NCBI RefSeq assembly: GCF_000619845.1
Contig: NZ_JHUX01000003.1
Location: forward strand, 1,090,064 to 1,122,063
Direction of reading: 5' to 3'
DNA length: 32,000 nt
From: Alkanindiges illinoisensis DSM 15370
GTDB taxonomy: Bacteria > Pseudomonadota > Gammaproteobacteria > Pseudomonadales > Moraxellaceae
Below the pieces are notes generated by a model, which was not told the origin of the DNA, did no database searches, and saw only the letters and a program-made list of their open reading frames with translations. Position numbers and translations under genes: made by a program. Positions 9,622-27,380 of this stretch are shown here, one piece after another. Each line of letters starts with the position of its first letter. Positions within the stretch are counted from its first letter, which is position 1.

Positions 9622-9947
9622 TGTATTTTAACTCTTTATATTCAGCCAGATCATACTAATAAATAAGGCTTTAGACTGAAAAATCAAGGCTATAAATACT
9701 GCTAAATGTAATTGGACATTTAAGGCAAGCCTTAATGAATAGATTGCTTTTAAAATAGTCATCCCCACTAACTGTAAAAGCTTTTTAAATTTTTGCTATC
9801 CGTTTTTAGAAAGCTTTTGCAAGTGCAAAGCCGTGTTTCTTACAAGCTTAAAACAACCCGCCAACCAAACAGGTAAATAAAGCGGCTCAGCTCAGAAGTC
9901 AAACCGTTATACAATAACATCAACTTAAAATTCAGGCAGGAGACTGG

Positions 9948-11024: not shown

Positions 11025-12116
11025 ATGCCAGCAATAACCAGCTTGTTAGATTCATTTCCATCATTCTTAAAGAATAAATCCGCACCGTTACTTGAGATTT
11101 TCTATAAGCCAACAACAGACAATAAAAAGCTCATTCAGGAAATTCGGCAGCTACAACGTCCCTATCAGCCCACATTCTGGCTGGCCAACACGCATGTGCA
11201 GCTCATGTATCTTGAACTTAAGAAAAAGCTGGAAAAACCTTTAATTTATGATCGTGTTGAAACCCTCACCATGGCCGATGGTGGCAAAACGGCACTAGCG
11301 TGGTATGGCTATAACTTGCCAGCCTCTACCCCAACCCTTGTTATTTTGCATACTTTAACGGGTAGCCCGCGCAGCATGCAGGATATGGTGCGGGATTTAC
11401 ATGAATATACGGGGTGGCGTGTAGTCGTTGCTGTACGGCGTGGACATGGCGGGCTTGAATTTGACCCACCACGTTTCAATATCTTTGGTTCTACGCAGGA
11501 TCTTCGGGAACAACTCACGCACATTGAACGGCTGTTTCCACAATCACCGTTATATGCGGTGGGTTCTTCGGCAGGTTCAGGCTTGCTCATCCGTTATCTG
11601 GGTGAAGAACAGCAAAATGCCCGGTTTAAGGCATCTTTTGCATTCTGCCCCGGCTACAACACGGATGAAGGCTTTAAGTATTGCCATCCTTTTTATAGCA
11701 AATATATGGCTAAAAAATTAATCAGAACCTTTATTGAACCTCATCAAAGCAAGTTGCAGCAATTAGCAACATTTAACCATCTTAAAACTGCCAAAGACCT
11801 GCTGGCTTTTCATGAAAAAGTCTATGAATTTTCCGGTTATCCAAGTTATCAGCACTATTCGGATGCCACCAATCCCATGAAGGTTTTTCAGCAGGTTACC
11901 ACTCCGGTCATGTTGCTAAATGCCAAGGATGATCCAGTATGCAATATTCAAAATCTTGACCCCTATCTGGCTGATATTCAGCAAATGCCCAATCTTATTG
12001 TGGTTAAAACCAAAAAAGGCAGCCATTGTGCCTATCAGCAAGGCTGGCAAGCCAGATCATGGGCGCATAAACTGATGGCCGAATATTTTCAGGTGATACA
12101 CAAAAGGGATGCATAA
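11025..12116 (+). CDS. alpha/beta-fold hydrolase (YheT/ABHD-like)
   Basis: Nucleophile elbow VGSSAGSG and an HTLTG oxyanion-region motif. Start set to the ATG at 11025 (GAGGA 8 nt upstream) rather than the TTG at 10983. Confidence 0.85.
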   Translation: MPAITSLLDSFPSFLKNKSAPLLEIFYKPTTDNKKLIQEIRQLQRPYQPTFWLANTHVQLMYLELKKKLEKPLIYDRVETLTMADGGKTALAWYGYNLPASTPTLVILHTLTGSPRSMQDMVRDLHEYTGWRVVVAVRRGHGGLEFDPPRFNIFGSTQDLREQLTHIERLFPQSPLYAVGSSAGSGLLIRYLGEEQQNARFKASFAFCPGYNTDEGFKYCHPFYSKYMAKKLIRTFIEPHQSKLQQLATFNHLKTAKDLLAFHEKVYEFSGYPSYQHYSDATNPMKVFQQVTTPVMLLNAKDDPVCNIQNLDPYLADIQQMPNLIVVKTKKGSHCAYQQGWQARSWAHKLMAEYFQVIHKRDA

Positions 12117-13734: not shown

Positions 13735-13810
13735 TCTCCAATAGCTCAGTCGGTAGAGCAACGGACTGTTAATCCGTGTGTCCCTGGTTCGAGCCCAGGT
13801 TGGAGAGCCA
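13735..13810 (+). tRNA. tRNA-Asn (GTT)
   Basis: The cloverleaf folds by hand: acceptor tctccaa/ttggaga, anticodon loop ctGTTaa, T-loop ttcgagc, encoded CCA. Confidence 0.95.
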
Positions 13811-14668: not shown

Positions 14669-14744
14669 TCTCCAATAGCTCAGTCGGTAGAGCAACGGAC
14701 TGTTAATCCGTGTGTCCCTGGTTCGAGCCCAGGTTGGAGAGCCA
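14669..14744 (+). tRNA. tRNA-Asn (GTT), second identical copy
   Basis: 76 nt identical to 13735..13810, at an offset of 934 bp. Confidence 0.95.
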
Positions 14745-14759
14745 AGATTCTGCGGTAAT

Positions 14760-14793
14760 AAAAAATCCCTGCCCAATAAGCAGGGATTTTTTT
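14760..14793 (+). terminator. rho-independent terminator after tRNA-Asn copy 2
   Basis: Same hairpin as 13826-13858, with one loop substitution and one extra T. Confidence 0.75.
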
Positions 14794-14852
14794 ATTGGTG
14801 CTTATTTTATTCTCGCTTTAGCGCCACTTTAAATTTTATAGGAAAGCAAAAA

Positions 14853-15302
14853 ATGAGCATGTGGCTGATTATTGGTATTGTAATCATTGCATTACTGGGC
14901 ATTATTGCAGGGGAAAATAAAAAGCCCCGCCAGCAGCACACACCCATTCATGCCAAACCAATATTAACCCGTCGTGAACAGCAGTTTTTTGCCGTACTGC
15001 AACAAGCCATGCCCCGCGCTTATATTTTCCCGCAAGTCAGCTTTTCCGCCATTTTGACTACTAAGGGGTTTTATACGCGTAGTCAGTTTAACCGCAAGAT
15101 TGCTGACTTTGTGTTATGCGATCACAATCTTAATATTGTGGCGATTATTGAACTGGATGACAGTAGTCATAAAGGCCGCGAGCAACAGGATGCCGCGCGT
15201 GATGCCATGCTGAATGAAGCAGGCTATCCGGTATTTCGCTATGCACAAATTCCTGTGGCTGGGCAGCTCCAGAAAGACCTGCAAAAATACCTGAAGTGGT
15301 AA
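14853..15302 (+). CDS. membrane-anchored DUF2726 / PD-(D/E)xK nuclease-like protein (copy A)
   Basis: 149 aa from the ATG at 14853; the track start at 14712 lies inside the tRNA. An N-terminal TM helix is followed by a K/R-rich stretch and then ADFVL...IIELDDSSHKG. It is about 50% identical by eye to the prophage protein at 26278..26739. Confidence 0.8.
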   Translation: MSMWLIIGIVIIALLGIIAGENKKPRQQHTPIHAKPILTRREQQFFAVLQQAMPRAYIFPQVSFSAILTTKGFYTRSQFNRKIADFVLCDHNLNIVAIIELDDSSHKGREQQDAARDAMLNEAGYPVFRYAQIPVAGQLQKDLQKYLKW

Positions 15303-15317
15303 TGGCTTAATATCGTA

Positions 15318-15339
15318 TCTGGAAAAGTCCAGAATTTTT
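15318..15339. terminator. short bidirectional hairpin between convergent genes
   Basis: tctgga-aaag-tccaga followed by ATTTTT. Confidence 0.45.
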
Positions 15340-15346
15340 AATCCAT

Positions 15347-15715
15347 TTAGTTGTGTTTTCTATCAAAGGCCTTATGCTGGTTTGCGCTGGCATCGCGCAC
15401 ATTACTGGCACAAGTACTGGCGCTGACCTCCACTGGCTTGGCTCTTGCATCATAACATTTACAGCCTGTGGGCGTTTTCATGCAGCCTGCAATATACTGC
15501 ATTTGTGAGCTGGAATTTAAATGATGCAGTTGTGACTTGATCTGTTCATTTTGAATCTGGGTTTCACTCATGCCATCGCTATGCGGCGTCGGAATTGAAT
15601 CTGAAGAAATCTGGCTCGGCTCGGTTTTAAAGAAAGACTGCTTTTTAAGGACATTAAACACAACAAGTGCAATGACCAGAAAAATAGCCAGCTTAATCAT
15701 TTTTTGTAAGGCCAT
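15347..15715 (-). CDS. orphan Zot/pI C-terminal-domain (pXI-like) protein
   Basis: TM helix (KLAIFLVIALVVF) plus YIAGCMKTPTGCKCYDARAKPVEVSASTC, which aligns without gaps to the C-terminus of the prophage Zot (YLSGCIQLKTKCSCYTQQGSKLDVSIADC), all 4 Cys included. The start is uncertain (ATG at 15715 or 15700, TTG at 15736) and there is no clear SD. Confidence 0.6.
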   Translation of the reverse strand: MALQKMIKLAIFLVIALVVFNVLKKQSFFKTEPSQISSDSIPTPHSDGMSETQIQNEQIKSQLHHLNSSSQMQYIAGCMKTPTGCKCYDARAKPVEVSASTCASNVRDASANQHKAFDRKHN

Positions 15716-15932
15716 AATTGTCTTTATAATTAGCAAAATTATGTGAGTAGCGGCAAATTTCTATTATTGTATTAATATCAGCATGCACACTGTGAAAACT
15801 GATTTTAATAAATCTATGCCTTAAAAGACAAGCTGTAACAGAGTTGCTTATAATTTAAGCAGCATCATTGATGTTTACCGCTGCATACTCCAGCTTATTC
15901 AATTCAACAATAATATACAGCTGGAGTATGTC

Positions 15933-18119: not shown

Positions 18120-18305
18120 TTTCCTAAACAGCTTTTATTCATTCCATACTGATGACTTAAAAACCCTGACAGCTTAAAATCTTCTAAAATTGCATAACAG
18201 CAATGTTGATAGCGAATTTTTTAAGATATTTATCTATCATATCTTTATATAGCTAAAGCACTAAAGACAGCTTAAGCACACTTGTGCTTTGGCCTTTATA
18301 AATAA

Positions 18306-18764
18306 TTGTTTAATGGCTTTGCCAGAGAAATAAATGAGTCAATTAATTTTTTTAATTATAGGGTTGGATATTGGTTAGGGAAAAATTATAAATCAACCAG
18401 ACAAAATAAAAAGCCGGTGCCATCACGGCTTAGGCAATTGACAGCCATAGAACGGCAAAAAGCTAAAGTTCTGTATACAACTGATGCAGATCGCATTAAG
18501 GAGCTCAATTTACTTTCACCCACTGAAGGAAAGTTTTTACGCATACTTCAGCATGAATTCATCAGTGCTGACATTGTAGTCAAGCAAAAGCGTTTCTTTG
18601 TGGTAGATAAAGATCAATTTCCACTGGCTATCTTTGAATATCGTGATGGGTTGCAAACTTTAAGGGCAACAGATGTAGATGATGGTTTACCTGTATTTAT
18701 CTATAAGAATTTGCCACCAAGCAGCTCTATTAAAGAAGATGCAGAATTTATACTGGCTCGATAA
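18306..18764 (+). CDS. hypothetical protein with degenerate DUF2726-like segments
   Basis: AT-rich region with a TTG start and no internal Met. LSPTEGKFLRILQHEF, FFVVDKDQFPLAIFEYRDG and GLPVFIYKN mirror the LT..E..F..L, DFV..ELD and AGYPV.RY blocks of the two DUF2726 proteins, but the acidic and Lys residues are not conserved. Confidence 0.45.
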   Translation: MFNGFAREINESINFFNYRVGYWLGKNYKSTRQNKKPVPSRLRQLTAIERQKAKVLYTTDADRIKELNLLSPTEGKFLRILQHEFISADIVVKQKRFFVVDKDQFPLAIFEYRDGLQTLRATDVDDGLPVFIYKNLPPSSSIKEDAEFILAR

Positions 18765-18772
18765 GGAGTAAC

Positions 18773-19171
18773 ATGAGTAAGGACTTTTTAGTTTTTTTGA
18801 TTCCCCTTGGAATTTTTTTGGCTTACTAGATTTTTGGTAATAAACCTGCTCGTCCTCAGCGGATATCCTCTGGTTCTAGAAATGTAAAACCTTCAAAAGA
18901 ACAGCGCAATCAGAAGATTTCAGCCATTAATCTGTTGTTTAAAAATGCTTCAACAGAATTCAAGGAATATCGTGTTTTCAGCAAGAATGGAAAAGTAATA
19001 ATTTCTGAAATTGAAGATATAAGAGAATATCCTAGAGAACTTATATTTATTTCCCTAAATCCTTTAGCACAGAAGTCCATTACACAAGGTAGTGCATACA
19101 TTGTGGCGGTGTATCGTTCAGTACTCACAGGTGCAGAAATGCGTCGGGATTTTGCTTCAATATTACACTAG
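18773..19171 (+). pseudogene. 132-codon frame interrupted by an in-frame TAG at 18827-18829
   Basis: AAGGAG lies 6 nt before the ATG at 18773. An 18-aa hydrophobic N-terminus (MSKDFLVFLIPLGIFLAY) is followed by TAG, and the same frame stays open to 19171, which contains the track ORF 18935..19171. Confidence 0.45.
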
Positions 19172-19301
19172 GATATTTTTCTAGTAATCTTGTATGGGTA
19201 CAAGAAAGTAAGATTAAGCCGTTAATTTTGCACAGAAAACTAGCAATTTGAATGATCTAGAAAAAGAGGTTGTCAAAGCTAAGCCCAAAATTAGTTTTAA
19301 G

Positions 19302-19386
19302 TGAAATTGCTGGATTAAATCCGTTTGATACGCGCACAGAGGTACAGACGGAATTAGACAAGGATAATTCTTCTTATTGGAATAAA
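19302..19386 (+). pseudogene. remnant of the 3' end of a phage HTH-regulator gene (older, related phage)
   Basis: Encodes [29 protein letters not shown], colinear with the tail of the intact prophage HTH gene (26995-27079). Of the 11 differing codons, 6 are synonymous and 5 change the residue. Confidence 0.6.
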
Positions 19387-19431
19387 TGGCGCGCCCGGCG
19401 GGATTCGAACCCACGACCCCTGCCTTCGGAG
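19366..19431. repeat. attL: 66-bp perfect direct repeat (21 bp of flank plus the 3' 45 nt of tRNA-Arg)
   Basis: Identical to 27059-27124 at an offset of 7,693 bp. It contains only the 3' part of the tRNA (CCA end to anticodon loop). Confidence 0.85.
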
Positions 19432-19465
19432 CGCGTCAGTTTTAGTATTTCAGTTACAAAAATAT

Positions 19466-20347
19466 TTAAAAAGTTGGCAGAGATTTTAGAGCGTCGCGCA
19501 AATTATCAATTTGCAAGTGAGCATAGCGCTCCGTTGTTGTTATACACGTATGGCCTAGCAGATCGCGCACCGTATAAAGCGGGATTCCCGATTGAACGAG
19601 CCACGATGCAAAAGTGTGTCGTAAATCGTGAATACGCAAGTTATCAATCTTTGCCATCTTACAGGCTAATCTAAATCCTTTCTTTAAACTCAGTATATGA
19701 GTGCCTGTCTGTTCATTATAAAAAACCCAAGTATTATTCGCCCTGGCTAACTTCATTTCATGCAGCACTTGCATGGCCGTTTCATTCAATGCAATAAAAC
19801 GCCGCCGTTTTGACTTGGTATTTTCCCTATTCAGAATTAAATAGCGATTATTAAAATCCACCCTATCCCAAGAAAGCCGGAGCAGCTCACCAGATCGGCA
19901 GCCCGTATTTAAAGCCAATTTGATAAAGCAGTTTAAAAAGTAATTATCTTTTGAAGCATAGATTAGCCTTGCAGCTTCAGCATTAGATAGAAAGCGGATA
20001 CGTGGCTCAGATTCAGATAATGAAAAATTGGCCAATGGGTTTCTATGGGATAATTCATGGTCAGTAAAATAATAATTAATTGCAGCACGCAGAGACCGAA
20101 ATTCACGGTTAATTGTCGCGTCAGTCACTCCAGCAGCACGCCTAAAGTGAATGTAGTCACGCAGGCTTTGCCGTGTGATTGCAGTTATTTCAATGTCACC
20201 ATAAAAAAGCTCAAAGCGTGCATAGGCATATTTGTCACGATCTTTTGAAGTATGTTCAGAATAATGCAGATAATAAGCTGTCACATTATTAAGGGTAATC
20301 ATAGCTAAAAGTCCTGATACATAAGGACTTTTAAAAGTGGAATTCAT
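19466..20347 (-). CDS. int: tyrosine recombinase / phage integrase
   Basis: C-terminal catalytic region NTGCRSGELLRL...HDLRHTFASWLVQSG...LLGHTCITTTERYAHL (R, H-x-x-R, Y). It lies directly next to attL. Confidence 0.9.
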   Translation of the reverse strand: MNSTFKSPYVSGLLAMITLNNVTAYYLHYSEHTSKDRDKYAYARFELFYGDIEITAITRQSLRDYIHFRRAAGVTDATINREFRSLRAAINYYFTDHELSHRNPLANFSLSESEPRIRFLSNAEAARLIYASKDNYFLNCFIKLALNTGCRSGELLRLSWDRVDFNNRYLILNRENTKSKRRRFIALNETAMQVLHEMKLARANNTWVFYNEQTGTHILSLKKGFRLACKMAKIDNLRIHDLRHTFASWLVQSGIPLYTVRDLLGHTCITTTERYAHLQIDNLRDALKSLPTF

Positions 20348-20366
20348 GGCATGTTTAGTCTGTTTT

Positions 20367-20512
20367 GAAACGCGGTGCGTTTCGCTTCGCTTGTAACTAT
20401 GAAGCTGATGCGCACAAGTCGCATCAGCTTCTGTAATTAGCTTGTTTTTGGGTTCTTTGGGCGATCAAGTTACTTTCAGACTAGACGGTGCAGTTGCCCG
20501 CTATTCTGAAAG
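20367..20512 (-). promoter_or_regulatory. cluster of three hairpins in the phage non-coding region (candidate packaging signal / origin / terminator)
   Basis: gaaacgc-ggt-gcgtttc (20367-20383); a perfect 12-bp stem gaagctgatgcg/cgcatcagcttc (20401-20431); ctttcaga/tctgaaag (20473-20512). Confidence 0.4.
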
Positions 20513-20523
20513 CCTTGACGCTG

Positions 20524-20649
20524 CTAATCCCTACTATTTTCTTTGACACCTTTAATAATTCTACGAATAGGGTGTTTAATACCGTCCCATATAAAACCAA
20601 ATAAGCATAGACCTATAAGAAACATCAGTGCTTGATAATAACTAGACAT
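20524..20649 (-). CDS. small hydrophobic phage protein (41 aa), not in the ORF track
   Basis: Its ATG at 20649 overlaps the zot stop (ATGTCTAG). The product is MSSYYQALMFLIGLCLFGFIWDGIKHPIRRIIKGVKENSRD: one TM helix plus a basic tail. Confidence 0.5.
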   Translation of the reverse strand: MSSYYQALMFLIGLCLFGFIWDGIKHPIRRIIKGVKENSRD

Positions 20650-21934
20650 TAGGTGTTACCTGTGCTGGTGACTGCACTGGAGCAGCAGGCTGTGACTGTG
20701 CAAGGAACGGGTTAAACGGCATTCCGTCATTGATTACTTTTTTGCAGTCCGCTATAGACACGTCCAGCTTAGATCCTTGTTGCGTGTAACAACTGCATTT
20801 TGTCTTGAGCTGGATGCAACCGGACAGATAAGGCCGGTTAACTCCACCAGCAGAATACTGGTTATCAAAAGGCTTGTTTGGGTCATAATTCACTTCCACA
20901 GTAGGCGTGGAAGTTTGATTTTGCAGTGTGGAAGTCTGTCGCGCTTCCAGATCTGCACGTTGCTCAGGGGTCAGCGGGTCATGCACTTGTGCTGCCTGCT
21001 GTGCTTGTACTGTCTGGCTAGTTTTTGCTGGTTGAGGTTTGCCCCCAGCGACCTCAGTTAAAAAGTTATCTGTCAGGAACAGGGTTTTTAGAGCGTAGGT
21101 AAACGCTAGAACTACACCAATACAGATAAAAATAAACTTGGGTGGGATACGCATTTTATGCGTGTGTACCGTAGCAGACTTATAATATTTATATAAATCC
21201 TTTGGATAGCTAAAGCGAAATGAGCGTTCAGCAATGGCTTTTTTTGTTGGCTCATTAGGCCCAAGAACACAGTAAGCCCAGAGATATACAGTAGCCGATG
21301 GCATCCCCCAGCCACGGTGCAGGTGGAAGTGATTACCCACTACTGAACGGAAGTGAGAATGCACCAGAACCGGAAACTGGGTGATCCCATAAATATCAAA
21401 ACCGCGGTGACGGTGAATCTGTAAGGCTTCTACAATGTCATTGGTTTTGCGTTCTTCCTTGTAGGTTTCACGCTGCTGGATTTCATCATAGAACACGCGT
21501 GAGCCGTCAGGACAAGTACGCCAGTCATCAGGACTAGGCAAAACATTAGGGACTTTCAGGCCGTTGATGTCAGCGTATATGGTGCGGACATCCTTTAAAA
21601 ACTTAAGTTTTAAAGCAGGGTTATAGTCCTTAATACGGGTAATAATTGAGTTGTAAGCCATTGTTTTCTGGTAGTAGAGCTCATGGCGTAATTCAAGGGA
21701 AAGTATAGAAAAATGATCATATTCATCTGGGTATAACTCTATTTGCTCTTTTAAATTCCAGCCATACTGGAATTCATCTTCAAGCTTGTTTTCCCTAATG
21801 ATTTTATCGTTATGGGCAAAAATAGCAGGGTTCAGCTTAATGTTCTTGGCGTTCTCTTTTTCAAACTGGATGATTAAAGAAACCGCGTAAAGGGTTTTTC
21901 CTGAGCCGGGCGTTCCGGTTATCAAATGCAGCAT
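20642..21934 (-). CDS. zot: Zot / pI-like filamentous-phage assembly ATPase
   Basis: N-terminal Walker A GTPGSGKT, a central TM helix (FIFICIGVVLAF), and a Cys-containing periplasmic C-terminal domain. Its position after the pVI-like gene matches Ff and CTXphi. Confidence 0.92.
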   Translation of the reverse strand: MLHLITGTPGSGKTLYAVSLIIQFEKENAKNIKLNPAIFAHNDKIIRENKLEDEFQYGWNLKEQIELYPDEYDHFSILSLELRHELYYQKTMAYNSIITRIKDYNPALKLKFLKDVRTIYADINGLKVPNVLPSPDDWRTCPDGSRVFYDEIQQRETYKEERKTNDIVEALQIHRHRGFDIYGITQFPVLVHSHFRSVVGNHFHLHRGWGMPSATVYLWAYCVLGPNEPTKKAIAERSFRFSYPKDLYKYYKSATVHTHKMRIPPKFIFICIGVVLAFTYALKTLFLTDNFLTEVAGGKPQPAKTSQTVQAQQAAQVHDPLTPEQRADLEARQTSTLQNQTSTPTVEVNYDPNKPFDNQYSAGGVNRPYLSGCIQLKTKCSCYTQQGSKLDVSIADCKKVINDGMPFNPFLAQSQPAAPVQSPAQVTPNV

Positions 21935-22011
21935 GGGTTACTCCGAAGCTACCCTGCGGGCGGGTCACCGTGCGCTCCGTGCAGTTGCGCGGTGCGCCGT
22001 GCAATCCGTCC
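21935..22011 (-). other. GC-rich 77-bp spacer with three GCACGG repeats
   Basis: On the minus strand it reads ggacggattGCACGGcgcaccgcgcaactGCACGGagcGCACGGtgacccgcccgcagggtagcttcggagtaaccc, immediately before the zot ATG. Its composition is unlike the flanking phage DNA. Confidence 0.5.
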
Positions 22012-22299
22012 TCAGGTAGCTTTTCGCAATGTTAGCTTTGATGCGTTTAACGCCATTCGGGTCAAATACGCAGATAAAATAAGCGACATATAGAGATCAA
22101 GGCCAAGCAAGTGTGCAAAGGCCAATACGTCACTTGGTACACCACCTAGCATCGACTTCATTTTGTCAACGGCAGCCGTGAAGGTGGTCATGAATATGGC
22201 TGATGAGGTAAGCATGACACCCGCACCAGTTAGGACATTTTTTAAGAATCCCTTTTGACTGGATTCAACAACAGCAGTTACTTTTGACCAGAAACCCAT
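22012..22299 (-). CDS. pVI / Ace-like minor coat protein
   Basis: 95-aa hydrophobic protein. Its ATG at 22299 overlaps the upstream stop (TAATG). It lies between the pIII-like gene and zot. The track start at 22395 is upstream and overlaps the pIII-like gene. Confidence 0.6.
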   Translation of the reverse strand: MGFWSKVTAVVESSQKGFLKNVLTGAGVMLTSSAIFMTTFTAAVDKMKSMLGGVPSDVLAFAHLLGLDLYMSLILSAYLTRMALNASKLTLRKAT

Positions 22300-23714
22300 T
22301 AACTTTCTTCCTCTGTACGTCCAGCTACGATCATAGAAGCCTGATAAGCACCAATGAGTAAAATTGCTGGTTTTGCATAAGCAAAAGCCTGACACCAGCC
22401 GGAAAGATCAAACTCAAAGGTCTGGGTTTGACCTATAAAATTAAAGCTGAAGGTTTTTGGCTGGGGACATGTTCCGCCAAAATCCAACTGGATGGCTTGA
22501 GGTGTTTCTGTCGTAGGAATATCAATATCAGTATCACTATCATCACGCTCAGGAACTTCTTCCTTGATTGCATCAGCAAGCTCGCGTGTGGCCGTTGCTG
22601 TTTTCGTTGTTTCAGCAAGCTGTTTTTCTGCATCAGTATGGGCTTGAGTAGTTCCAGCAGTTACAGCCTTTTTGGTTTCCTCTGTCTGTGTTGCAGTGGT
22701 TTGAGTCGCTGTTTTCACTGATTCTGTGTCAGTTGCTATACGGGTAGAGTTAGTAGCAACTTTTCCTGAATTGGTATTACTAATATTCATTGCGTCACAA
22801 ATGAAAGCAGCCCATGAGCAAAAGCCGGGCAATGTGAATTTTTCTATAGGCGGTGCATCTGGATCAGCAGTATTAGGCTTTGTTTCTTTGGTGATATCGT
22901 TGTCACCTTCTTTAGGCTCTACACCAGCATTTGCATCTAGCTGTTGAGGTACAGAGGGATATGCAAGAGGTTTACCTTGTTCAGCGTCAGCTAGATCAGC
23001 CGCAACTGTTTCTTTTACAAAGTCATTTGCAGCAGCGTCACCAGCAGCGGCATTTTTTGCTATTTCAGCGCCAACAACATCGTACGGTAAGTATTTTTCT
23101 TCAGGTTTAATGTCGGGGTCATAATTTGGGTTTACGACACGGTTAGCTTGGTCGTATCCCCAAGCACTACGGCATTCAACGGTTTGACCATTATCTGTTG
23201 CAACCATTTCGGTGATAGGAGGATGTCCTTCAACAGCAGCAACAGCAGCATTACACGCTTCCCCAAATGTAGAATAAGTCTTTGTTGTGCCAGCAATAGA
23301 AATCTGCCATAAATATTGAGAATTATTAACAGGTGTTTCCCAATATTTAACACGATTATTTGCAGGATCAAGTACCCAAGAAACACCATCGAGAAGTAAA
23401 TCAATTGCAGTCGTTACAGCTAGTACAGCACCGAAACGACCTATGCCACGCGCCAGATCAGCAGGTGCTGGAGTAACTTTTGCAAATGAATTAACCGTAC
23501 GAGAAGCACCATTAATGATTGCTTCTTTGGTTGCATTGATTGTTGCTACACCAGCCTCAGCAGCTATAGAACCTACAGACCAGCCACCCAAACCAGAAGC
23601 AGCATTTGCAAATACATAAGCTGGAGCAAACATCATGTAAACACAGATGATTAGATTAATTATCTTCGTGTGATAATCAGGAATGCTAGAACGGTTACAA
23701 TTAAAGGTATCCAA
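22299..23714 (-). CDS. pIII-like adsorption / minor coat protein
   Basis: 471 aa with a signal peptide (...MMFAPAYVFANA), a Thr/Ala/Gln-rich linker, and a C-terminal membrane anchor (AILLIGAYQASMIVAGRTEEES). It lies after the coat gene. The start (TTG at 23714) is uncertain. Confidence 0.65.
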   Translation of the reverse strand: MDTFNCNRSSIPDYHTKIINLIICVYMMFAPAYVFANAASGLGGWSVGSIAAEAGVATINATKEAIINGASRTVNSFAKVTPAPADLARGIGRFGAVLAVTTAIDLLLDGVSWVLDPANNRVKYWETPVNNSQYLWQISIAGTTKTYSTFGEACNAAVAAVEGHPPITEMVATDNGQTVECRSAWGYDQANRVVNPNYDPDIKPEEKYLPYDVVGAEIAKNAAAGDAAANDFVKETVAADLADAEQGKPLAYPSVPQQLDANAGVEPKEGDNDITKETKPNTADPDAPPIEKFTLPGFCSWAAFICDAMNISNTNSGKVATNSTRIATDTESVKTATQTTATQTEETKKAVTAGTTQAHTDAEKQLAETTKTATATRELADAIKEEVPERDDSDTDIDIPTTETPQAIQLDFGGTCPQPKTFSFNFIGQTQTFEFDLSGWCQAFAYAKPAILLIGAYQASMIVAGRTEEES

Positions 23715-23740
23715 TTTATCCAGCTCGCTTCGTCAGTCAT
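23660..23740 (-). CDS. possible 26-aa coat-like peptide (pVII/pIX-style), not in the ORF track
   Basis: MTDEASWINWIPLIVTVLAFLIITRR has an acidic N-terminus, a hydrophobic core and a basic C-terminus. It overlaps the pIII-like 5' end in another frame. The SD is weak. Confidence 0.3.
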   Translation of the reverse strand: MTDEASWINWIPLIVTVLAFLIITRR

Positions 23741-23754
23741 TTAGTTAATCCCAA

Positions 23755-23783
23755 TAGAAGAAAGCCCCGAAGGGCTTTCGTTT
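23755..23783 (-). terminator. hairpin terminator immediately after the major coat gene
   Basis: gaaagccc-cgaa-gggctttc, 5 nt after the coat stop, followed on the minus strand by a T-rich tract. Ff phages have a terminator after gene VIII. Confidence 0.6.
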
Positions 23784-24032
23784 TTACTTGGCACCCTTTT
23801 TGAACCATGACCATGCGAGGTACATGCCCAGTAAACCAACCAGAACAATAATGACTCCCTTAACAGCAGTTTTAGTGCCGTCAAGCTCACCAGTTGCCCC
23901 AGAGAAGTCCAGTTCAGCAGCAGCAAAAGAATTAGCTGCTACAAGCGCAGTTGAAGCCCCTACAGCACCTACGAATGCTGCATCCTTAAGACGTTTAACC
24001 AGTGGTTGGGTTTGTGGAGTTACATCTTTCAT
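23784..24032 (-). CDS. major coat protein (pVIII-like)
   Basis: The leader ends ...AANSFA|AAELDF. The mature peptide of about 45 aa has an acidic N-terminus, a hydrophobic core (VIIVLVGLLGMYLAW) and a basic C-terminus (FKKGAK). AAGGA is upstream. Confidence 0.85.
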   Translation of the reverse strand: MKDVTPQTQPLVKRLKDAAFVGAVGASTALVAANSFAAAELDFSGATGELDGTKTAVKGVIIVLVGLLGMYLAWSWFKKGAK

Positions 24033-24054
24033 TTTTTACATCCTTAAGTTGTGT

Positions 24055-24252
24055 TCAGGTGTTTTTATCCATGAACTGTTTAAAAAGCTGGTAGCAGTAA
24101 GCCATTATTAAAATCGTGCAGATTTCAACAGTAAGCTCACGTGCTTGAGCTTTCGTGATTGCGACCTGGTCAAGTACAGTGACTTGCTCAGACCATGAAA
24201 CACACGTCTGTGGCGTTGTGTCAGATAGCTGGTCACAGACGTAGTGCGTCAT
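24055..24252 (-). CDS. small phage protein (65 aa)
   Basis: Tightly packed: it starts 3 nt after the previous stop. It has one hydrophobic segment (ICTILIMAYCYQLF). Function unknown. Confidence 0.5.
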   Translation of the reverse strand: MTHYVCDQLSDTTPQTCVSWSEQVTVLDQVAITKAQARELTVEICTILIMAYCYQLFKQFMDKNT

Positions 24253-24255
24253 TCT

Positions 24256-24396
24256 TTAAAATCCGGTGCAGGTCATGTAATGGGCAGTAATCAGGCTTTT
24301 AGACATGACTTGACCGCAGCAAATACATTTAACTTTTGGTACGAGTGATATGCTCATTGGCTTAAATCCCAGTCCTTTTACATAAACCTGAATCAT
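24256..24396 (-). CDS. small Cys-rich phage protein (46 aa), not in the ORF track
   Basis: Its ATG is 2 nt after the stop of the ssDNA-binding-like gene. The product is MIQVYVKGLGFKPMSISLVPKVKCICCGQVMSKSLITAHYMTCTGF, with a C-x-CC...H...C pattern. Confidence 0.5.
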   Translation of the reverse strand: MIQVYVKGLGFKPMSISLVPKVKCICCGQVMSKSLITAHYMTCTGF

Positions 24397-24398
24397 GG

Positions 24399-24704
24399 TT
24401 AAGCCTTAGCAGCTTGTGGCGCTAGAACAGGCTTTAGGTCAATCAAAATGGTTTTTTGGCTTTTGCCATTGGTGACCATTTCAAACGTGGCCACCGCTTC
24501 GAACGGAAACTTGAGTGTTGCCACTTTGTTGAAGTTGTCAGACAGCCCCCATGGGTATTCAGAGCCAGCGAAGCCCACAGCATCGCCTTTGCTGGTGTCC
24601 ATGCCTGTTTGCACGTAAACCTTTGTGCTGTCGTATGGCTTTCCTTCCATTTCGCCTTTGCTACGCTTCGCACCAGTTACTACTACGTTAGATTGAAATT
24701 GCAT
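24399..24704 (-). CDS. probable ssDNA-binding protein (pV/RstB position)
   Basis: 101-aa ORF directly after Rep, with GAGGT as SD. The call is by position only; I recognise no diagnostic motif. Confidence 0.5.
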   Translation of the reverse strand: MQFQSNVVVTGAKRSKGEMEGKPYDSTKVYVQTGMDTSKGDAVGFAGSEYPWGLSDNFNKVATLKFPFEAVATFEMVTNGKSQKTILIDLKPVLAPQAAKA

Positions 24705-24714
24705 GTTTTTTACC

Positions 24715-25995
24715 TCAAGAATAAACAGCGTTAAATTGGGAGCGCTGAACAGCCTGACTCAAGCGTGTATAGCCATAAGCCTGTTCAAACTGTTTGTTAC
24801 GTTCCATTGAAATTGCAAGATGATCAATAATTTGCAGACGCTTAGGTACTGCGTCAGGGTCATTAGCAGTCACAAACTGCATAATTTCTGAATCGGAATA
24901 AACCTTGCGGAAAAGGGCAAAGTATTTGCCGAATTGATGTTTGATAATTTCCTTAGCCCGCTTCTGGGTGATTTCAGCTGTTTTTTTAACAGTGGCTATT
25001 TTTTCAGGCGTGGCGTACTGGTGAAAATCCGAAAAACAAGGATAAGCACCAATAAAATATTGAGAAGGACTAAGCAAAATATCAAATGGTATAAAGCGGT
25101 CATGGCCTTTAAATTCAACCTCTGCACGTGTCCAAGGATCATCCTTAGCACCCTCTTTTTTACCTTTTTCATAAATCCGGCAATATTTTCCAGATTCACG
25201 AGTGCCAATGGTTAGCGTCCGGCCTTTGCCTGTAATGCGTTTCCAGTTGCCCAAGTGTCCAATGTTAGGCATGGTGCCACCGCACCAGAAGCCGCCTAAG
25301 CCGTCTTGCATGTTTGCCCAGTCAACATTTAAGTGTTTGCCCTGCAAATCATCATGTGCAAGGTCTACACGGGTCAGCTTGGTACGCTGGGCATATCCGG
25401 TCAGGTATTTATAAAGGCGTTCATGCCATCCTTTAGCTGCTAAAGCACAGCCTTTGCCGTTAAGCTGGACTGCAATGCGTTTAGAGCTATGACCCATTAA
25501 GACTATGCCTAGGTTGTCTTGCAGCTCCCAAGAGTACTTATAGAAGTGCATACCCTTGTCACGTTTTTTTGCGATGCCAAAACCGAAGATTTCAAACAGG
25601 TCTTGGTCTAAATCGTCGGCAATGTCGTCGTAGGCGTCAGCATCATCTAGGCCTAGTGCTAAATATTTAGGGCTAAAGGTTTCAACACCTAGCGCAAATG
25701 TTACCCAGTCCAGTTGAGCAACTTCGCCAGTACAAGGCACGCTATGGATGATTGGCAGGTCTGTACCATCTTCAGTTTTGACCATGCGGACGTTGTCCAG
25801 CTTGCGTGGATACTTCCAGTTGCCTAGGTCTGCTGTTTTCCCGAAAATTTCCGGCTGGTTGCCTTCCACTATCGCAGGGATTAAGGCCTCTTGCGTCCCC
25901 TGTGGTGATACCGTTACCCCCATATTATAAAAGGGGGTCTTTTCGACCTTTACCGTGTGTTTTAACTGGGTTTTGATTAATTTTTGATCAGACAT
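24715..25995 (-). CDS. rolling-circle replication initiator (Rep_trans / RstA-like)
   Basis: LTRVDLAHDD and GKYCRIYEKGKKEG...WTRAEVEF blocks are typical of the Rep_trans family used by CTXphi-type phages. The ATG at 25995 overlaps the upstream ORF stop (ATGTCTGA). Confidence 0.85.
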   Translation of the reverse strand: MSDQKLIKTQLKHTVKVEKTPFYNMGVTVSPQGTQEALIPAIVEGNQPEIFGKTADLGNWKYPRKLDNVRMVKTEDGTDLPIIHSVPCTGEVAQLDWVTFALGVETFSPKYLALGLDDADAYDDIADDLDQDLFEIFGFGIAKKRDKGMHFYKYSWELQDNLGIVLMGHSSKRIAVQLNGKGCALAAKGWHERLYKYLTGYAQRTKLTRVDLAHDDLQGKHLNVDWANMQDGLGGFWCGGTMPNIGHLGNWKRITGKGRTLTIGTRESGKYCRIYEKGKKEGAKDDPWTRAEVEFKGHDRFIPFDILLSPSQYFIGAYPCFSDFHQYATPEKIATVKKTAEITQKRAKEIIKHQFGKYFALFRKVYSDSEIMQFVTANDPDAVPKRLQIIDHLAISMERNKQFEQAYGYTRLSQAVQRSQFNAVYS

Positions 25996-26254
25996 GATCA
26001 TCCCCCAATTGTTCCAGAATTTCACTCAGGGAAGCATTTTCACTTTCAAAAATGTCAGCAAGTGCAGCGATGCGAGCTGGTGAGTAGCCCCAAGCCGCAC
26101 AAACTGTTTCAAGCTGGCGCAGGCAATGTTCAGTATTTGGTGTGCATGAGCCGCCTACAATGATTTCTTCGCCATAATTCGCTACTATCTGTGCGACATG
26201 ATCAAATGCAGCTTGAGCAAACTCATGCTGATCTTTATAGACAAACGTTTGCAT
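25988..26254 (-). CDS. hypothetical acidic phage protein (88-91 aa)
   Basis: Its stop overlaps the Rep start. I found no SD before either candidate start (ATG at 26254, GTG at 26263). Confidence 0.45.
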   Translation of the reverse strand: MQTFVYKDQHEFAQAAFDHVAQIVANYGEEIIVGGSCTPNTEHCLRQLETVCAAWGYSPARIAALADIFESENASLSEILEQLGDDHV

Positions 26255-26277
26255 GGCGTTCACCAGAGAGAGAAAAA

Positions 26278-26739
26278 ATGGAAATCTTGATAATCATTGC
26301 TGTTGTAGTTATTGCAGCCTTAGCTTTTTTAGGAGCAGCTAATAAAAGCAAATCTACTAAAGGTAAAAACCAAACACCCATTAAGGCTAAGCGCGTTTTA
26401 ACCATGAATGAGCAGCCAACATTCAACAGATTACGAGAAGCACTACCTGACCATATAGTTTTAGCCCAAGTTTCATTTGGTGCATTATTAAGTACAACCG
26501 GACAAGCAACACGTAATCGCTTTAATCGAAAAATTGCAGATTTTGTTGTACTGGATAAATCTTTTAACGTGGTTGCAGTTGTCGAACTGGACGACAAGAG
26601 CCACAAAGGAAAAGAACAGCAAGATGCAGAACGGGATGCAATGCTTAAGGAAGCTGGATATCGTGTCATTCGATATCCGAGAACTCCTGATCTAGATAAA
26701 GTCAAAGCTGACTTTGCACCACCCATAAACACACCTTGA
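26278..26739 (+). CDS. membrane-anchored DUF2726 / PD-(D/E)xK nuclease-like protein (copy B, prophage cargo)
   Basis: 153 aa with an N-terminal TM helix (EILIIIAVVVIAALAFLG), a Lys-rich stretch, and ADFVVLD...VVELDDKSHKG...GYRVIRY. It is on the strand opposite to the phage structural operon. Confidence 0.8.
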   Translation: MEILIIIAVVVIAALAFLGAANKSKSTKGKNQTPIKAKRVLTMNEQPTFNRLREALPDHIVLAQVSFGALLSTTGQATRNRFNRKIADFVVLDKSFNVVAVVELDDKSHKGKEQQDAERDAMLKEAGYRVIRYPRTPDLDKVKADFAPPINTP

Positions 26740-26790
26740 TATTTCGCTAAATCGGCTTAACATAATTGTGAAGTCGGATTAACTAAATCT

Positions 26791-26830
26791 AACCAAATTT
26801 GTGAAGAAAGGTTACTTCACAAATTTGGTT
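26791..26830. promoter_or_regulatory. 16-bp perfect inverted repeat, candidate operator upstream of the HTH gene
   Basis: aaccaaatttgtgaag-N8-cttcacaaatttggtt ends 18 nt before the HTH ATG. A third TTGTGAAG copy is at 26766-26773. Confidence 0.55.
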
Positions 26831-26848
26831 ATCGTCAAGGTGTGCGAA

Positions 26849-27145
26849 ATGATCAAAGAACTAATAGAAAAAGCAAAATTTAGCTTGGGAAGCTATGAAA
26901 AATTAGCAGAAGCGACAGGCGTAAGACCGTCTGTAGTATCGGAATGGAAAGCAGGAAAAAGAAAGCCTGATGCTTTTAAAATTTGTTATATGGCTGAAAT
27001 TGCTGGATTAAATCCGTTAGATACACTTGCAGAAGTACAAGCAGAAATTGATAAAGACAATTCTTCTTATTGGAATAAATGGCGCGCCCGGCGGGATTCG
27101 AACCCACGACCCCTGCCTTCGGAGGGCAGTACTCTATCCAGCTGA
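26849..27145 (+). CDS. Cro/CI-type HTH regulator whose 3' end crosses attR into the antisense of tRNA-Arg
   Basis: HTH segment [26 protein letters not shown]. The frame has no stop before the tRNA and ends at 27143-27145. The track start at 26801 lies inside the inverted repeat, so the ATG at 26849 is preferred. Confidence 0.75.
27059..27124. repeat. attR: 66-bp perfect direct repeat
   Basis: Identical to 19366-19431. Here it is part of the complete tRNA-Arg. Confidence 0.85.
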
Positions 27146-27156
27146 GCTACGGGCGC
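27080..27156 (-). tRNA. tRNA-Arg (CCG)
   Basis: The reverse complement folds by hand: acceptor gcgcccg/cgggcgc, anticodon loop ctCCGaa, T-loop ttcgaat, encoded CCA. Confidence 0.95.
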
Positions 27157-27197: not shown

Positions 27198-27380
27198 GCA
27201 TTGCTTTTTTAACTGCTAGTTTTCTGTGCAATTTCTTATCAGTAATCTGCCAAACTATAACGCCTGCTCAATAAGTTGCAACGCAGCGTTCATAAAATAC
27301 AACCGGATAAGACTTGGCTTTTTTGACAATATTCCCGACAATAGGTGCCCTGTGCTTAACCAGTCATTTGAGAGAATTCC

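Follow-up and report, generated by a model that had tools for sequence, protein, structure and literature searches.

The 32,000-nt stretch of the Alkanindiges illinoisensis DSM 15370 genome analysed here (contig NZ_JHUX01000003.1, positions 1,090,064-1,122,063; hereafter designated the window, with positions counted from its first nucleotide) contains, at 19366-27124, a compact set of genes of filamentous phage (inovirus) type that is enclosed by a direct repeat and adjoins a tRNA-Arg(CCG) gene. An initial annotation of the sequence had read this segment as a filamentous prophage inserted in the tRNA gene and carrying its own integrase. Both copies of the perfect repeat were found exactly where it had placed them, each being exactly 66 bp long (19366-19431 and 27059-27124), with a start-to-start spacing of 7693 bp; moreover, a 25-nt core probe matched only these two attachment (att) places in the window, and none of 100 shuffled sequences gave any match. 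The intact tRNA-Arg(CCG) gene, located by both ARAGORN and Rfam (65.5 bits), is on the minus strand at 27080-27156. Of the two repeat copies, the right one comprises the 3′ 45 nt of this gene and 21 nt downstream, and the left copy retains the same 3′ 45 nt, from the anticodon loop to CCA, with no 5′ half, in agreement with the description of a complete tRNA on the right and a partial one on the left. Because the identity of the two copies starts at the first base of the anticodon loop (CTCCGAA...), strand exchange probably takes place in or near this loop. The initial annotation had not recorded, however, that a similarity of ~78% runs for 64-70 nt past the 66-bp repeat (19296-19365 compared with 26989-27058). 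The Rfam scan returned tRNAs only, its sub-threshold matches being tRNA-derived or due to a palindrome. The features of the locus, including each open reading frame (ORF) of the element with its length in amino acids (aa), are as follows.

18306-19365, plus strand: right-arm remnant of a related filamentous prophage older than the present one (accessory-gene copy, ~530 nt and the 3′ end of a helix-turn-helix (HTH) regulator gene)
19366-19431, no strand: attL, 21 nt and the 3′ 45 nt of tRNA-Arg(CCG)
19432-19674, plus strand: hypothetical coding region, an open frame antisense to the 3′ end of the integrase gene (int), which in the reconstructed circular phage would be the 74-codon continuation of the HTH gene across attP
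19466-20302, minus strand: tyrosine integrase, 278 aa in its database form (longest ORF to 20347); PF00589 1.6e-32 (113 bits), phrog_1 4e-61
20348-20523, minus strand: intergenic region of 176 nt containing two hairpins, one of them a perfect 12-bp stem-loop at 20401-20431
20524-20649, minus strand: 41-aa ORF with a hydrophobic stretch (read by eye), overlapping the Zot stop (ATGTCTAG); no family match
20642-21934, minus strand: pI/Zot morphogenesis ATPase, 430 aa; PF05707 2.2e-11, phrog_197 5.1e-67
21935-22011, no strand: G+C-rich spacer of 77 nt between the pVI-like and Zot genes, with repeated GCACGG motifs
22012-22299, minus strand: pVI-like minor coat protein, DUF2523; PF10734 33.4 bits (cut-off 22.1), phrog_1242 1.4e-16
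22299-23714, minus strand: pIII-like adsorption/minor coat protein, 471 aa, TspB type; phrog_7568 7e-57, NF041109
23760-23779, minus strand: terminator-like hairpin GAAAGCCC-TTCG-GGGCTTTC with a T-rich tail, directly 3′ of the coat gene
23784-24032, minus strand: major coat protein precursor, 82 aa; weak PF05356 and phrog_2186 matches, sequence features
24055-24396, minus strand: two small ORFs of 65 aa (phrog_9110 5e-6) and 46 aa (no match), in the position of small minor coat proteins
24399-24704, minus strand: 101-aa protein in the position of the single-stranded DNA (ssDNA)-binding protein; phrog_4994 1.4e-32 (family without assigned function), weak match to the RstB family phrog_929 (0.0025)
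24715-26001, minus strand: Rep, rolling-circle initiator of the Rep_trans family, 428 aa in its database form (longest ORF to 26025); PF02486 7e-20, phrog_453 9e-87
25988-26263, minus strand: 91-aa ORF, first gene of the replication operon; phrog_20873 9e-16; inside a block of ~80% nucleotide identity common with the sister phage of Alkanindiges sp. WGS2144 (L002)
26278-26739, plus strand: accessory gene, N-terminal hydrophobic stretch (read by eye) and a DUF2726/DUF559 endonuclease-like domain; PF10881 6e-16, PF04480 7e-9
26790-26831, no strand: near-perfect palindrome with a 17-bp stem, just upstream of the HTH gene; fold z about -7
26849-27145, plus strand: XRE-type HTH regulator, prophage form of 98 aa; PF01381 4e-6, phrog_638 1e-13
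27059-27124, no strand: attR, right copy of the 66-bp repeat
27080-27156, minus strand: intact tRNA-Arg(CCG), its 3′ 45 nt within attR, the copy adjoining the phage DNA

Gene content of the element

The 7693-bp genome carries 11 co-oriented ORFs on the minus strand, in the order of the 91-aa ORF, Rep_trans, the 101-aa ORF, the two small ORFs, the 82-aa coat, the pIII-like protein, the DUF2523 pVI-like protein, Zot, the 41-aa ORF and the integrase; this is the inovirus gene order that had been claimed. Adjacent genes overlap or are separated by gaps of 77 nt or less, with the exception of the 176-nt intergenic region. All 13 ORFs of the element are uninterrupted, with translationally coupled overlaps, and the stop/start overlaps quoted in the initial annotation were each found in place, namely TAATG at 22299 (pIII stop/pVI start, from which the ATG at 22299 is the probable start of the pVI-like gene), ATGTCTAG (Zot stop/41-aa start) and ATGTCTGA (91-aa stop/Rep start). 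The genes listed there were found in the stated order; missing from the inventory were the two plus-strand genes between Rep and the tRNA, which encode the HTH regulator and the DUF2726 protein.

Profile searches backed the assignments of Rep, Zot, the integrase and the pIII- and pVI-like proteins. Thus, Rep scored 71.9 bits against PF02486 (cut-off 29.6), and its 151 matches in the phage database all bear filamentous-phage names (Vibrio, Ralstonia, Stenotrophomonas and Xanthomonas phages, Affertcholeramvirus, Inovirus, Inoviridae and Dulem virus), with 33-38% identity for the best 25 of the 151. Zot, which scored 44 bits against PF05707 (cut-off 20.3), has a Walker A motif (GTPGSGKT) at the N-terminus and a Cys-rich C-terminal region, and is 38% identical to that of Acinetobacter phage M02 and 35% to that of Dulem virus 65, the closest deposited phages. 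The C-terminus of the pIII-like protein matched the TspB C-terminal domain NF041109 with 47 bits (cut-off 24). The coat protein is assigned by weak profile scores (PF05356, E 0.01, 16.3 bits against a cut-off of 23.5; phrog_2186, 3.9e-4) together with features of its sequence, that is, a signal peptide ending in ...NSFA, an acidic N-terminus, a hydrophobic core and a basic KKGAK tail, and with its position upstream of the adsorption gene; the proteins at the coat position of two related phages described below (L002 and L086) reach Phage_Coat_B. The terminator said to accompany the coat gene is present as the hairpin and T-run at 23760-23779. An ORF of 62-64 aa lies just upstream of the coat gene in four of the relatives (L086, L087, L089 and L176), a positional likeness to the 65-aa ORF. 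As the initial annotation had stated, a pIV-type secretin gene is lacking: no ORF of the element matched a secretin in Pfam, PHROG and NCBIfam profile searches.

The integrase consists of a SAM-like N-domain and a catalytic domain, no arm-binding N-domain having matched above the cut-off, and is 100% identical to P0121, a database entry named tyrosine-type recombinase/integrase of A. illinoisensis. Its catalytic residues R136, H225, R228, H251 and Y260 (R, HxxR, H, Y) are invariant in an 11-sequence alignment (A4). Since its nearest phage relatives are the integrases of tailed Pseudomonas phages of the D3 group (44% identity), the comparison suggests that the lysogeny module was acquired horizontally.

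Among the non-coding elements, the 20401-20431 stem-loop region within the 176-nt intergenic region folds as DNA with z = -4.6 and is a candidate packaging signal, origin or terminator. The 77-nt G+C-rich spacer was also considered as a packaging hairpin and rejected, its fold being no better than those of shuffled sequences (z = 0.31); a spacer of this kind is absent between the same genes in L002. The palindrome at 26790-26831 is a candidate operator. The related phages carry different palindromes at the corresponding position upstream of HTH, which fit operators of diverged specificity. The window palindrome may also terminate read-through from the tRNA gene.

Empty sites, related phages and the adjoining remnant

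Comparison of related genomes for an unoccupied tRNA-Arg locus had been set beforehand as a test of the insertion. In A. illinoisensis NFYY 23406 (L004), A. hydrocarboniclasticus H1 (L005) and Alkanindiges sp. WGS2144 (L006), the locus of the ABC-transporter and tRNA-Arg genes is empty, being without the 7.7 kb, which supports an insertion of the segment. The flanking ABC-transporter protein of the window is 98% identical to that of NFYY 23406, and in both L004 and L005 a cold-shock (csp) gene lies on the other side of tRNA-Arg. The tRNA-Arg(CCG) of L004 itself (9701-9777) differs by three compensatory changes in the acceptor stem (GCGCTTA/TAAGCGC compared with GCGCCCG/CGGGCGC); were the phage to integrate there, the resulting tRNA would be a hybrid whose acceptor stem is mismatched.

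The tRNA-Arg(CCG) gene of other Moraxellaceae harbours at least six related phages. Three of them (L086, L087 and L175) are unitigs of ~7.5-8.2 kb, two (L089 and L176) are metagenome or genome contigs, and one (L170) is a genome contig whose integrase cluster is named from Acinetobacter soli. L089 and L176 adjoin the same ABC/QueF neighbours as the window phage, and the repeat of L176 is exactly the 45 tRNA nt, with a virgin flank. The three unitigs were considered as circular genomes and rejected, their terminal overlaps of 12-14 nt falling under the overlap expected of a circular contig (assumed k-mer 31); likewise, L003, an 8315-bp Logan contig of the sister phage, proved to be only a unitig between att repeats. 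Scans of IMG/VR with Zot, int and HTH returned no more than distant matches or matches to the tRNA alone, and a metagenome scan with the integrase alignment gave only distant integrases (42% identity or less), the patterns derived from it being generic catalytic motifs.

The sister phage L002 shares the replication module with the window phage: Rep is 86% identical at the protein level, and the module of the 91-aa ORF, Rep and the 101-aa ORF is ~80% identical in nucleotides (24425-26280 compared with L002 9453-11572). Its structural genes are unrelated, however, and it has another integrase and another site, tRNA-Glu(TTC), with a 58-bp direct repeat. This combination shows a modular lineage, in which the integration modules (tRNA-Arg or tRNA-Glu) are swapped and the replication module is kept; the integrase type tracks the target tRNA.

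The ~1 kb directly left of attL is also of phage origin. Its first part, the ORF at 18306-18764 (152 aa), is a 5′-altered copy of a 143-aa accessory gene (phrog_23897, 5.6e-43), and the encoded protein is 64-72% identical to the 143-aa protein that L086, L087 and L002 carry between HTH and Rep. A middle part of ~530 nt without assignment follows, and the last part, 19296-19365, which abuts attL, corresponds to the last ~70 nt of an HTH gene, being 78.6% identical to the HTH 3′ ends of L086 and L087 and to 26989-27058. When 18120-19365 was compared with the csp regions of L004 (8925-9687) and L005 (8879-9666), the csp gene, which in both genomes stands between tRNA-Arg and the flanking genes, was found to be absent from the whole window. 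On these similarities, 18306-19365 is not host sequence but the decayed right arm of an earlier related phage. In the simplest account, this phage would have integrated in tRNA-Arg, the present phage would then have integrated into the regenerated tRNA to give a tandem arrangement, and a later deletion would have taken away the host csp region along with the distal att site and the greater part of the older phage. Identity of attP and attB at virgin sites would be 45-59 nt; the repeat measures 66 bp rather than 45 because it includes phage-to-phage identity with the older remnant. The prophage span of the initial annotation is kept, and the adjoining remnant, which it had missed, is added to it.

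Several observations concern the surroundings of the element and its accessory genes. An exact 18-mer, TTGCACAGAAAACTAGCA, occurs at 27214-27231 (minus) upstream of the tRNA-Arg promoter, where it is conserved in A. illinoisensis and A. hydrocarboniclasticus, and once more, inverted, inside the remnant at 19228-19245 (plus); none of 100 shuffled sequences gave two matches. PADLOC returned nothing for the DUF2726 gene or for the 143-aa family. A chromosomal DUF2726 gene (14712-15302), 54% identical to the phage one, lies beside the second of two tRNA-Asn(GTT) genes (13735-13810 and 14669-14744), which flank an ORF of 160 aa with many hydrophobic residues; Alkanindiges genomes differ in the number of tRNA-Asn(GTT) genes and in how these are spaced, L005 having one copy. 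Next to this gene, a 129-aa ORF (15347-15736) has a C-terminal Cys motif resembling the C-terminal region of Zot (pairwise E 1e-6). Both genes are conserved in NFYY 23406, and the pair (14712-15736) may represent part of an inovirus domesticated long ago. In the A. soli-like lysogen L170, a DUF2726/DUF559 gene (11136-11711) is situated just outside the int end of the prophage, a placement reminiscent of the way in which DUF2726 genes accompany these phages and the regions where they integrate.

Position of attP within the regulator gene

The anatomy of the element given in the initial annotation holds, but the placement of attP within the gene of the HTH regulator had escaped it. The ORF of this gene crosses the att core, and its prophage form, which is identical to P0241, ends inside the tRNA gene, the last 23 of its codons being supplied by the att core and, in antisense, by the tRNA gene. 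When the circle is reconstructed by joining 27124 to 19432, the ORF gains 74 codons to become 172 aa long; the added stretch runs in antisense through the 68 codons at the 3′ end of int, so that HTH (plus) and int (minus) converge across attP. The six relatives behave likewise, with prophage forms of 97-103 aa and reconstructed circular forms of 173, 172, 173, 150, 142 and 136 aa. Protein collections contained only short forms when searched for the reconstructed 172-aa regulator, and all eight database homologues of HTH are of the short form. A search of 1.84 billion representatives with the 80-aa extension gave two spurious matches only.

The extension frame is open in all seven phages, over 39-74 codons, whereas the corresponding frame elsewhere in int meets a stop about every 15 codons. 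To obtain a null distribution, the Int protein was held fixed and its synonymous codons were permuted; the frame stayed open as far as observed in only 0.6-3.7% of permutations for six of the phages and in 17% for the seventh. Control frames mostly gave P values of 0.2-1, with 2-3 of 17 below 0.06, so that this null is imperfect. The amino-acid sequence of the extension is not conserved and only its openness is. The synonymous sites of int under the extension were also examined for constraint, and none was measurable: for five of six pairs pS was 0.65-0.72, a saturated divergence between lineages. The C-termini of the circular forms (..YRLI, ..YKPA, ..YKQV, ..VRAN, ..SNRI and ..VLSL) share no obvious tag. 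Judged from these frame statistics, selection for the open frame is likely.

What would be selected is a separate matter. Tentatively, and with odds that we place clearly below even, the lysogeny switch might sense integration, the longer protein or translation through the region being the selected trait. Alternatively, translation through the region could serve, in the circular phage, to sustain transcription antisense to int. In either case, a tandem array would regenerate the long form of HTH at its inner junction.

A regulator gene that contains attP is known from the mycobacteriophages BPs, Brujita and Charlie, in which integration removes from the repressor a C-terminus that is a demonstrated degradation tag (PMC3694055, PMC4557955). 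The window phage resembles them in the position of attP within the regulator ORF, in the different C-termini of the viral and prophage forms, and in a small integrase with no evident excisionase. These mycobacteriophages are, however, tailed double-stranded DNA phages of Actinobacteria in which rep and int are co-transcribed in one direction, whereas here HTH and int converge and the extension is antisense to int. Because regulator and int converge instead of being co-transcribed, the system of the window phage is not a member of the BPs-type family of integration-dependent immunity.

Interpretation and relation to known filamentous phages

Collectively, these results indicate that 19366-27124 is, in all likelihood, a complete-looking genome of a temperate filamentous phage (inovirus) integrated in A. 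illinoisensis, with the remnant of an earlier phage at 18306-19365. The phage integrase would recombine attP with the tRNA-Arg gene, and the excised circle would replicate by rolling-circle synthesis after nicking by Rep. The packaged ssDNA strand, presumably of the window minus-strand sequence, would first be coated by the 101-aa protein; at the membrane, this coating would be exchanged for the 82-aa coat protein with the aid of pI/Zot, and the particle would be extruded through a host secretin, since the element has no pIV gene of its own. The insertion is taken to be recent and little decayed, given that no ORF is interrupted and that the two repeats show 100% identity.

Several points weigh against this interpretation. 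The circular attP junction, searched for as an exact pattern, is absent from IMG/VR, as the long-form regulator is from the protein collections; no virion DNA was found in the searched collections, and one short-read assembly of DSM 15370 simply breaks at the repeat. The profile scores of the coat protein are sub-threshold. For the 101-aa protein, the ssDNA-binding assignment is made from its position and a weak RstB-family match; its AlphaFold2 model is unusable (pLDDT 46), and a PDB sequence search gave no matches. Moreover, four relatives have in the cro position a gene of 75-79 aa divergent from HTH (without a Pfam match in L086, L089 and L175, the three tested). In a comparison of window 26740-26848 with L086 262-607, L089 3636-3984, L175 275-633 and L176 9652-10000, the window phage proved to lack this ~75-aa gene and to have in its place the DUF2726 gene, transcribed in the same direction as HTH. 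The switch of the window phage may for this reason be incomplete.

Some of these points would equally be expected if the prophage were cryptic and defective, that is, integrated as described but unable to excise, replicate or assemble, a genomic fossil. The failure to find a circular form or long-form regulator in public data, the lack of the divergent gene and of a secretin gene, and the presence at the same site of a neighbouring relative that is clearly decayed all speak for such a fossil. Against this, the 13 ORFs are all intact with coupled overlaps, the att repeats are perfect over 66 bp, and the integrase keeps every family-invariant catalytic residue, and circles of low copy number seldom turn up in assemblies, so that failing to see them there is weak evidence. 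We therefore regard a fossil as unlikely. That the element is instead a non-viral integrative island or satellite merely carrying inovirus-derived genes is very improbable: it has a DUF2726 accessory gene and the layout typical of a tRNA-targeting island, yet the full inovirus core set stands in canonical order within 7.7 kb with nothing else, and the deposited circular genome of Acinetobacter phage M02 has a matching order.

Two further explanations concern the junctions. If the element were a CTXphi-like IMEX (integrative mobile element exploiting Xer), the host XerCD would have acted at a dif-like site and the encoded recombinase would be incidental. The integrase is indeed XerC/XerD-like by profile (E 1e-25 to 1e-29), and many inoviruses, including some Af prophages of A. 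baumannii, are thought to use XerCD (PMC11209303, PMC12715192). The junctions are, however, a duplication of the tRNA-Arg 3′ end and not dif, the integrase scores far under the Xer equivalog cut-offs (95 against 335 bits), and the integrase type co-varies with the target tRNA, L002 having another integrase at tRNA-Glu; this explanation is thus effectively refuted. It is likewise hardly conceivable that an assembly artefact or a local duplication produced the repeat and the insertion. Short-read assemblies do break at the repeat, but the interior of the element is unrelated to the flanking DNA, homologous insertions occur at the same tRNA in independent genomes and metagenome contigs, and related genomes have clean empty sites. 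The preferred reading hence remains that of an integrated temperate inovirus, which can be compared with known ones.

Pf phages are, like the window phage, temperate inoviruses with their own XerC/D-like tyrosine integrase, a site at the 3′ end of a tRNA or tmRNA gene and an integrase type that matches the site, and they, too, are not known to carry a pIV secretin of their own. They differ in that Rep has no detectable relation, there being no Pseudomonas phage among the 151 Rep matches, and Zot is only ~24% identical to those of Pseudomonas filamentous phages; Pf phages are also larger. In Pf phages int adjoins the tRNA and an excisionase is used; in the window phage, by contrast, the intact tRNA and int stand at opposite ends, no Xis was recognised and attP is inside the regulator gene. 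Five types of Pf integrases are matched to tRNA-Gly, tRNA-Met, tRNA-Sec, tmRNA or a direct-repeat site (PMC7549136). In addition, a genome-wide survey curated inovirus prophages whose att sites lie within a tRNA or beside an integrase, 582 in all (PMC6813254), and inoviruses encoding Int have been noted in gammaproteobacterial genera other than Vibrio (PMC12715192). The initial reading of an integrase-bearing filamentous prophage accordingly stands, and its implied novelty does not, integrase-bearing, tRNA-targeting inoviruses being well documented.

With CTXphi and other inoviruses having a Rep_trans (RstA-type) initiator (Vibrio VCY, Ralstonia RSS1, Stenotrophomonas and Xanthomonas phages), the window phage shares this initiator, a small protein in the RstB position, the order of coat, pIII-like, Ace/pVI-like and Zot genes, an HTH repressor on the opposite strand at one end, and the lack of a secretin gene. 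Those phages integrate via the host XerCD at dif or stay episomal (PMC12715192), and the contrast drawn with CTXphi in the initial annotation is borne out here by the PF00589 match, the catalytic residues, the duplicated tRNA 3′ end and the empty sites, which attest an integrase and a tRNA target of the phage's own. Acinetobacter phage M02 (OQ693633; 6.2 kb), which, like the Af phages, infects members of the bacterial family to which the host belongs, has the same block of coat, adsorption protein with TspB C-terminus, DUF2523 and Zot, and differs in having no integrase. The Af phages of A. baumannii (Af1/Af4/AfK) are described as using an IS110-type transposase or host recombinases, and the word integrase is absent from the text of the paper describing them (PMC11209303). 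Neisseria filamentous prophages (Nf/MDA) resemble the window phage in the TspB C-terminal domain (NF041109) of the adsorption protein; the literature cited in PMC11209303 describes for them a transposase, not a tyrosine integrase, and other target sites.

The class of integrase-bearing, tRNA-targeting inoviruses is thus already known, whereas this Alkanindiges/Acinetobacter lineage is uncharacterised, as judged from the lack of a match in a nucleotide search of 50,697 phage records and the low identities of Rep (33-38%) and Zot (38%) to known phages. As a prophage, the element is ordinary and adds this lineage, with a predicted nuclease-like accessory gene of the DUF2726 family on the phage, to the known class, at a time when the characterisation of Moraxellaceae filamentous phages has only begun (PMC11209303). 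Now that its boundaries, empty site and relatives are defined, excision and virion production are directly testable. The feature that could matter more is the location of attP in the regulator gene, together with the antisense extension that stays open across int in every phage compared. Should the switch reading prove true, a filamentous ssDNA phage with a Gram-negative host would possess something akin to integration-dependent immunity, coupled to antisense transcription converging on int. A functional arrangement of this kind would carry integration-dependent immunity outside the actinobacteriophages, and it would explain simply how such a phage alternates between silence as a prophage and production as an episome.

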